NCBI RefSeq assembly: GCF_003018255.1
Contig: NZ_CP027440.1
From: Escherichia coli
GTDB lineage: Bacteria > Pseudomonadota > Gammaproteobacteria > Enterobacterales > Enterobacteriaceae
Direction: 5' to 3' (one strand)
DNA length: 64,000 nt
Shown: positions 14,712 to 14,777 of the stretch, piece by piece
Position numbering within the stretch: position 1 is the first letter of the stretch
Layout: each line of letters opens with the position of its first letter
Program-made: the position numbers and the translations under genes
Notes under the pieces: generated by a model
The model's database searches: none
What the model was told of the DNA's origin: nothing
Seen by the model: the letters and a program-made list of their open reading frames with translations, nothing else

Positions 14712-14726
14712 TGGTGTCAGGGCACC

Positions 14727-14755
14727 AAAAAAAACCGCCGAACATGTCGGCGGCT
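14727..14755 (-). terminator. rho-independent terminator of the nuo operon (may also act for yfbM on the other strand)
   Basis: GC-rich stem CCGCCGAACATGTCGGCGG; on the minus strand it is followed by a run of 8 T. Confidence 0.75.
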
Positions 14756-14777
14756 TTCTGACTTACAAACTGACTGC

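Follow-up and report, generated by a model that had tools for sequence, protein, structure and literature searches.

A compact yfbM–nuoN junction in Escherichia coli, very probably ancestral, with a predicted terminator for the nuo operon

Introduction

In Escherichia coli K-12 MG1655, the genes yfbM, yfbN (minus strand), yfbO (plus strand), yfbP (plus strand), and nuoN follow one another in this order (b2272–b2276), and the gap between yfbM and nuoN is 2,610 bp. The three genes in the gap have low GC contents (yfbN 39%, yfbO 40%, and yfbP 43%, with 40% for the K-12 intergenic interval); nuoN has 57%. Overexpression screening against a retron toxin listed both yfbN and yfbO among its ‘blockers’ (bioRxiv 10.1101/2020.06.22.160242). 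In Pfam searches YfbN has UBA-like matches below threshold and YfbP has weak TPR matches; neither of these proteins, nor YfbO or YfbM, matched a defence or phage family in PADLOC and PHROGs scans. No paper on a nuoN terminator came up in a literature search.

Here we describe the same locus in a stretch of 64,000 nucleotides from another E. coli genome (assembly GCF_003018255.1, contig NZ_CP027440.1), referred to below as the window. The initial annotation of this DNA had placed 66 bp between the yfbM and nuoN stop codons, and the gap (14712–14777) is exactly that. It had also placed yfbN, yfbO, and yfbP between the two genes in K-12, as is seen in MG1655; the reference alignment that it had proposed as a check shows that yfbM is not adjacent to nuoN there.

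Results

The yfbM–nuoN junction

The features of the locus are collected in Table 1. YfbM belongs to the DUF1877/YfbM family (PF08974, E = 3e-35 in a Pfam search), and the product of nuoN is annotated in RefSeq as NADH:quinone oxidoreductase subunit N. The stop codon of yfbM (TGA) occupies 14709–14711 and that of nuoN (TAA on the minus strand) 14778–14780.

Table 1. Features at and upstream of the yfbM–nuoN junction (window coordinates)
Feature	Position	Strand	Description	Basis or remark
elaD remnant	12966..13076	+	111 bp	2014C-3338 pseudogene annotation converted to window coordinates
yfbL	13134..14105	+	M28 family metallopeptidase; upstream of yfbM, same strand	ORF and annotation
yfbM	14208..14711	+	167 aa, full length	ORF; identical DNA annotated in RefSeq 2014C-3338
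Convergent yfbM/nuoN intergenic spacer	14712..14777		66 bp; compact, very probably ancestral form	Same 66–68 bp in outgroups
17-mer GGTGTCAGGGCACCAAA	14713..14729		K-12 has the 2,561-bp yfbN-yfbO-yfbP segment instead	Alignment with MG1655; conserved in outgroups
T8 tract (plus strand: A8)	14727..14734	-	Predicted nuo-strand U-tail of terminator	Sequence
Predicted terminator hairpin	14735..14753	-	7-bp stem and 5-nt loop	Folding
nuoN	14778..16235	-	485 aa; last gene of the nuoA-N operon	ORF and RefSeq annotation

In a pairwise alignment, homology between the window and MG1655 extends 1 base past the yfbM stop codon and picks up again with the five A's that directly precede the hairpin. Between these breakpoints the window has 17 bp and K-12 has 2,561 bp (the yfbNOP islet); nothing inside the islet corresponds to the 17-mer, and no K-12-type islet homologue is found between yfbM and nuoN in the window. 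The GC content of the whole window is 52%, with 45–46% for yfbL and yfbM. The K-12 islet has neither terminal direct or inverted repeats at its boundaries nor mobility genes, so that no insertion mechanism can be named. Searches of the islet against phages and plasmids gave no matches except one 365-kb plasmid-labelled record and a stretch of 150 bp at 70% identity in Providencia plasmids.

Upstream, the interval between rbn and yfbL (12779–13133) retains only the 5′ remnant of elaD; the rest of elaD and the whole of yfbK are missing. No YfbM homologues were found outside Escherichia/Shigella at E ≤ 1e-10, which indicates that yfbM itself is restricted to these bacteria. The few matches assigned by name to other genera, which are either fragments or of the 107-aa Shigella type, are probably mislabelled. 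In Shigella flexneri, YfbM is consistently truncated at 107 aa (P0039–P0058).

The hairpin in the spacer

The arms CCGCCGA (14735–14741) and TCGGCGG (14747–14753) enclose the loop ACATG (14742–14746), and six of the seven stem pairs are G–C. The initial annotation had the hairpin flanked by an A8/T8 run; A8 is present (14727–14734), but on one side of the hairpin only, where it is the T8 of the nuo strand. Read on that strand, the hairpin starts 24 nt past the nuoN stop codon and T8 lies directly behind the stem, giving the GC-rich stem–loop, adjoining U8, and position past the last stop codon of the operon that characterise an intrinsic terminator. Folded as minus-strand RNA, the spacer reaches −28.6 kcal/mol, compared to −17.0 ± 2.8 kcal/mol for shuffled sequences (z = −4.2; 0 of 200 shuffles as good); the hairpin alone has about −11.8 kcal/mol and the tail score in the nuo direction is 5.27. 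A d'Aubenton-Carafa-type terminator score d, which is approximate as it uses ViennaRNA energies, is +38 for the window and +15 for K-12 in this direction. No significant fold is obtained for the plus strand (z = −1.8). In the yfbM direction, d of the window lies between −24 and −4, with a plus-strand T-score of 1.8–3.0 for the tail CTTTCTGA. A functional U tract on both strands, as expected of a bidirectional terminator, is thus not found, the plus-strand tail and fold being poor.

Judged by these scores, the hairpin is predicted to be a strong Rho-independent terminator in the nuo direction only, and the earlier suggestion that it could terminate the nuo operon agrees with the minus-strand fold and d. 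Transcription of nuo would end at the 7-bp hairpin and U8, 24 nt after the nuoN stop codon. The effect on read-through from yfbM, if any, would be weak and exerted via the hairpin alone.

The hairpin is absent from the list of a built-in consensus terminator scan. We infer that this is an artefact, with greedy stem extension through G–T and A–T pairs consuming the T run. A search of 14000–15200 against Rfam with a permissive threshold gave no known RNA family; the sub-threshold matches are chance matches (sroD, 18.6 of 50 bits; Fluoride, 15.8 of 34; ryfA, 15.7 of 80).

Distribution among E. coli genomes

The population sample consisted of 5,426 complete E. coli genomes. A query of 371 bp across the compact junction, counted when matched in one piece, is found in 4,214 of them (78%), including O157:H7. 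In a 24-kb comparison, the matches of W/KO11FL and Nissle 1917 are also unsplit at this position and that of K-12 is split by an insert of ~2.5 kb. The K-12 segment occurs in about 1,015 genomes (~19%), in 985 of these at ≥99% identity, always on the chromosome and, in every carrier genome inspected, at the yfbM–nuoN locus. yfbN, yfbO, and yfbP are accessory genes carried by about one-fifth of E. coli, and their absence should not be taken to mark a deletion or a phylogroup. The initial annotation had regarded the locus as a compact variant and had taken the missing genes as a hint at phylogroup. The frequency of the compact junction in the sample and its presence in outgroups (see below) turn the first point round, with K-12 as very probably the derived form; the second fails since O157:H7, W/KO11FL, and Nissle 1917 are all compact.

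A second islet allele, ~85% identical to that of K-12, is carried by about 24–27 genomes. It contains yfbN′-yfbO′ without yfbP in a gap of 1,681 bp, and its left junction is identical to that of K-12; ECO20 (L004 4375–6055) and UID2309220013 (L006) are carriers. In these two genomes the core genes on either side show far less divergence than the allele. An allele of 85% identity with the same left junction implies a history older or more complex than a single recent insertion.

Insertion sequences are also present in the spacer of some isolates. HCP5S3_I2 has an IS200/IS605 element in the A run beside the nuo terminator hairpin (L003 2108–2886), and E. coli 510016 has the IS3-family element ISEcB1 inside the hairpin itself (L005 4526–6036). 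With an element in either place, the putative nuo terminator would be disrupted or displaced in these strains. Two plasmid-labelled records, NZ_CP058715.1 (126 kb) and CP137936.1 (365 kb), carry the chromosomal yfbL-yfbM-nuoN or yfbNOP region and are probably chromosome fragments or misassigned replicons.

Source lineage

Positions 13100–16300 of the window are 100% identical to strain 2014C-3338 (NZ_CP027452.1), and identity to this strain over 31 kb is 99.5–99.7%. JNE23-011 (NZ_AP045067.1) is 100.0% identical over 14000–38000. Over 24 kb, 77 genomes are at least 99% identical to the window; K-12 has 98.2%, W 98.3%, O157:H7 98.1%, and Nissle 1917 98.1%, so that these four are at nearly the same distance from it. 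The lineage is rare, and it is non-K-12, a point on which the initial annotation was right.

The exact elaD/yfbK deletion junction is shared by 210 of the 5,426 genomes (in 79 at ≥99% identity) and is a far better lineage marker than the yfbM–nuoN spacer. Absence of elaD and yfbK had been read as a sign of strain background; the junction is indeed rare and marks the lineage, but the inference to B2 or Shigella drawn from it is not upheld. Approximately 925 genomes, presumed to be B2, have a different, ~85%-identical sequence upstream of yfbL that is unlike the window.

Phylogroup markers were read from annotation and gap sizes in the two closest complete genomes, 2014C-3338 and JNE23-011. In both, arpA is absent (aceK–iclR gap of 16 bp), chuA is annotated, and yjaA is absent from its usual position (rrf–yjaB gap of 125 bp). 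The arpA−/chuA+ combination of the B2 quadruplex criterion, which further calls for yjaA and/or TspE4.C2, is thus found in these genomes. The arpA−, chuA+, yjaA− profile, three markers without TspE4.C2, fits phylogroup F or G. Group G is told apart by a specific PCR or SNP and, reportedly, by its lack of elaD: a published survey reports elaD from every F strain but from none of the B2 or G strains (PMC12575377). Taken with the elaD remnant of the window, this leans towards G. The one paper found to name 2014C-3338 does not give its phylogroup.

The nuoM–nuoL spacer (17772–17931) measures 160 bp in the window and 227 bp in 2014C-3338. Some of the 24-kb matches (O157:H7 and EC12 among them) consist of two aligned pieces that together span ~67 bp more than the query. 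A small repeat element possibly accounts for the 67-bp difference. In the 2014C-3338 assembly, rpoC is annotated as a frameshifted pseudogene (L019 36013–40237), almost certainly owing to a sequencing error; the assembly is an imperfect proxy for the window.

Outgroups

Outgroups were drawn from a species-representative pattern scan (strict pattern, two relevant loci) and from the contigs of YfbM homologues, a sample that does not extend to E. fergusonii, E. albertii, or Salmonella. All four sampled non-coli or divergent Escherichia lineages have the compact spacer: E. whittamii (L012), L008, L022–L024, and L025. L008 is labelled E. coli, and its yfbL-to-nuoN region is ~91% identical to the window; YfbM of the L022–L024 lineage is 90% identical at the protein level. 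The hairpin stem is identical in the window, E. whittamii, L008, L022, and K-12.

Discussion

We consider it very probable that the compact junction is ancestral and holds the nuo terminator, that K-12 has the derived form through insertion, and that the window never had the segment. The compact form is the majority state in E. coli and is common to the sampled non-coli Escherichia lineages, which makes K-12 the insertion-bearing form; the outgroup spacers point to the compact form as the ancestral one, as do the low GC content of the K-12 segment and its near-clonal identity. The sequence differences are seen directly, and insertion as the direction of the event is inferred from outgroups and base composition. 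Composition alone is weak evidence for insertion because yfbL and yfbM themselves have only 45–46% GC. In the proposed course of events, K-12 and ~19% of E. coli would later have gained the low-GC 2.56-kb segment with yfbN, yfbO, and yfbP. It would have inserted directly behind the yfbM stop codon, replacing 17 bp and cutting the T run from 8 to 5.

The reverse course, in which the ancestor had yfbN-yfbO(-yfbP) and most lineages, including that of the window, lost the genes, would account for two islet alleles that differ by 15% and have exactly the same left junction, a pattern that suggests an old islet, and it fits with the low GC content of the neighbours yfbL and yfbM. It would need precise and repeated deletion across lineages, and it meets the same-placed 17-mer in the compact spacer of all four sampled non-coli or divergent lineages, a 17-mer for which the islet has no counterpart. 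In addition, 985 of the 1,015 islet carriers are ≥99% identical, which points to recent spread; we regard loss as very unlikely. Likewise very unlikely is the proposal, made in the initial annotation, of a B2/ExPEC or Shigella background for which the compact locus would be a marker. The closest genomes lack arpA and carry chuA, as in B2, and elaD is missing, as reported for B2 and G strains (PMC12575377), but these genomes also lack yjaA, and the presumed B2 genomes differ from the window upstream of yfbL. Nissle 1917 (98.1%) is no closer to the window than K-12 (98.2%) over 24 kb, and 78% of genomes, among them O157:H7, W, and Nissle, have the compact junction. As to Shigella, S. flexneri at least has a truncated YfbM; that of the window is full length.

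A true bidirectional terminator serving both nuoN and yfbM would explain why the spacer is short and conserved: the genes are convergent, the hairpin is symmetric, the plus strand has an A tract upstream and a partial T tract (CTTTCT) downstream of it, and the spacer is kept across Escherichia species. Against this stand the poor plus-strand tail and fold described above, and natural isolates carry IS and islet insertions in the spacer, which thus tolerates them; we find the bidirectional reading rather doubtful and favour a terminator acting in the nuo direction. At least four different insertions are present in the spacer of natural isolates (the yfbNOP islet, the yfbN′-yfbO′ islet, IS200/IS605, and ISEcB1), and the window itself is an empty site without any of them. 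From these one might propose that the 66-bp terminator spacer is a recurrent landing site for foreign DNA, with yfbN/yfbO as a small accessory module that lineages exchange by homologous recombination in the flanks. We put this forward as a tentative and, on balance, unlikely view.

The junction of the window is ordinary strain variation that thousands of RefSeq genomes already have in their annotation. Its biological weight is small, as the arrangement is the standard, very probably ancestral one; K-12 is not a neutral reference at the yfbM–nuoN locus.

Comparison with known arrangements

K-12 MG1655 is collinear with the window in the flanking genes, with nucleotide identities of 96.2% for yfbM and 98.1% for nuoN. 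Homology also covers the hairpin stem and the 24 nt that separate the hairpin from nuoN; the terminator differs in the T run (5 in K-12 versus 8 in the window) and in one loop base. In 2014C-3338 and JNE23-011, the locus is the same throughout, with spacer and flanking genes identical to those of the window and annotated in RefSeq; elsewhere 2014C-3338 departs from the window, among other things in the longer nuoM–nuoL spacer. Like the window, E. whittamii and the other sampled non-coli Escherichia have the 17-mer, the A run, and the same hairpin stem in a spacer of 66–68 bp; they differ from it by a few spacer substitutions and in the flanking genes (yfbM 87–93% and nuoN 95.5–96.5% identical). 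Their upstream content varies, with yfbK present and yfbL missing in some lineages. Like the canonical intrinsic terminators of E. coli, the predicted terminator of the window combines a GC-rich stem–loop with a U tract past the end of the operon. Known here from its sequence, the hairpin has no structural difference from canonical E. coli Rho-independent terminators.
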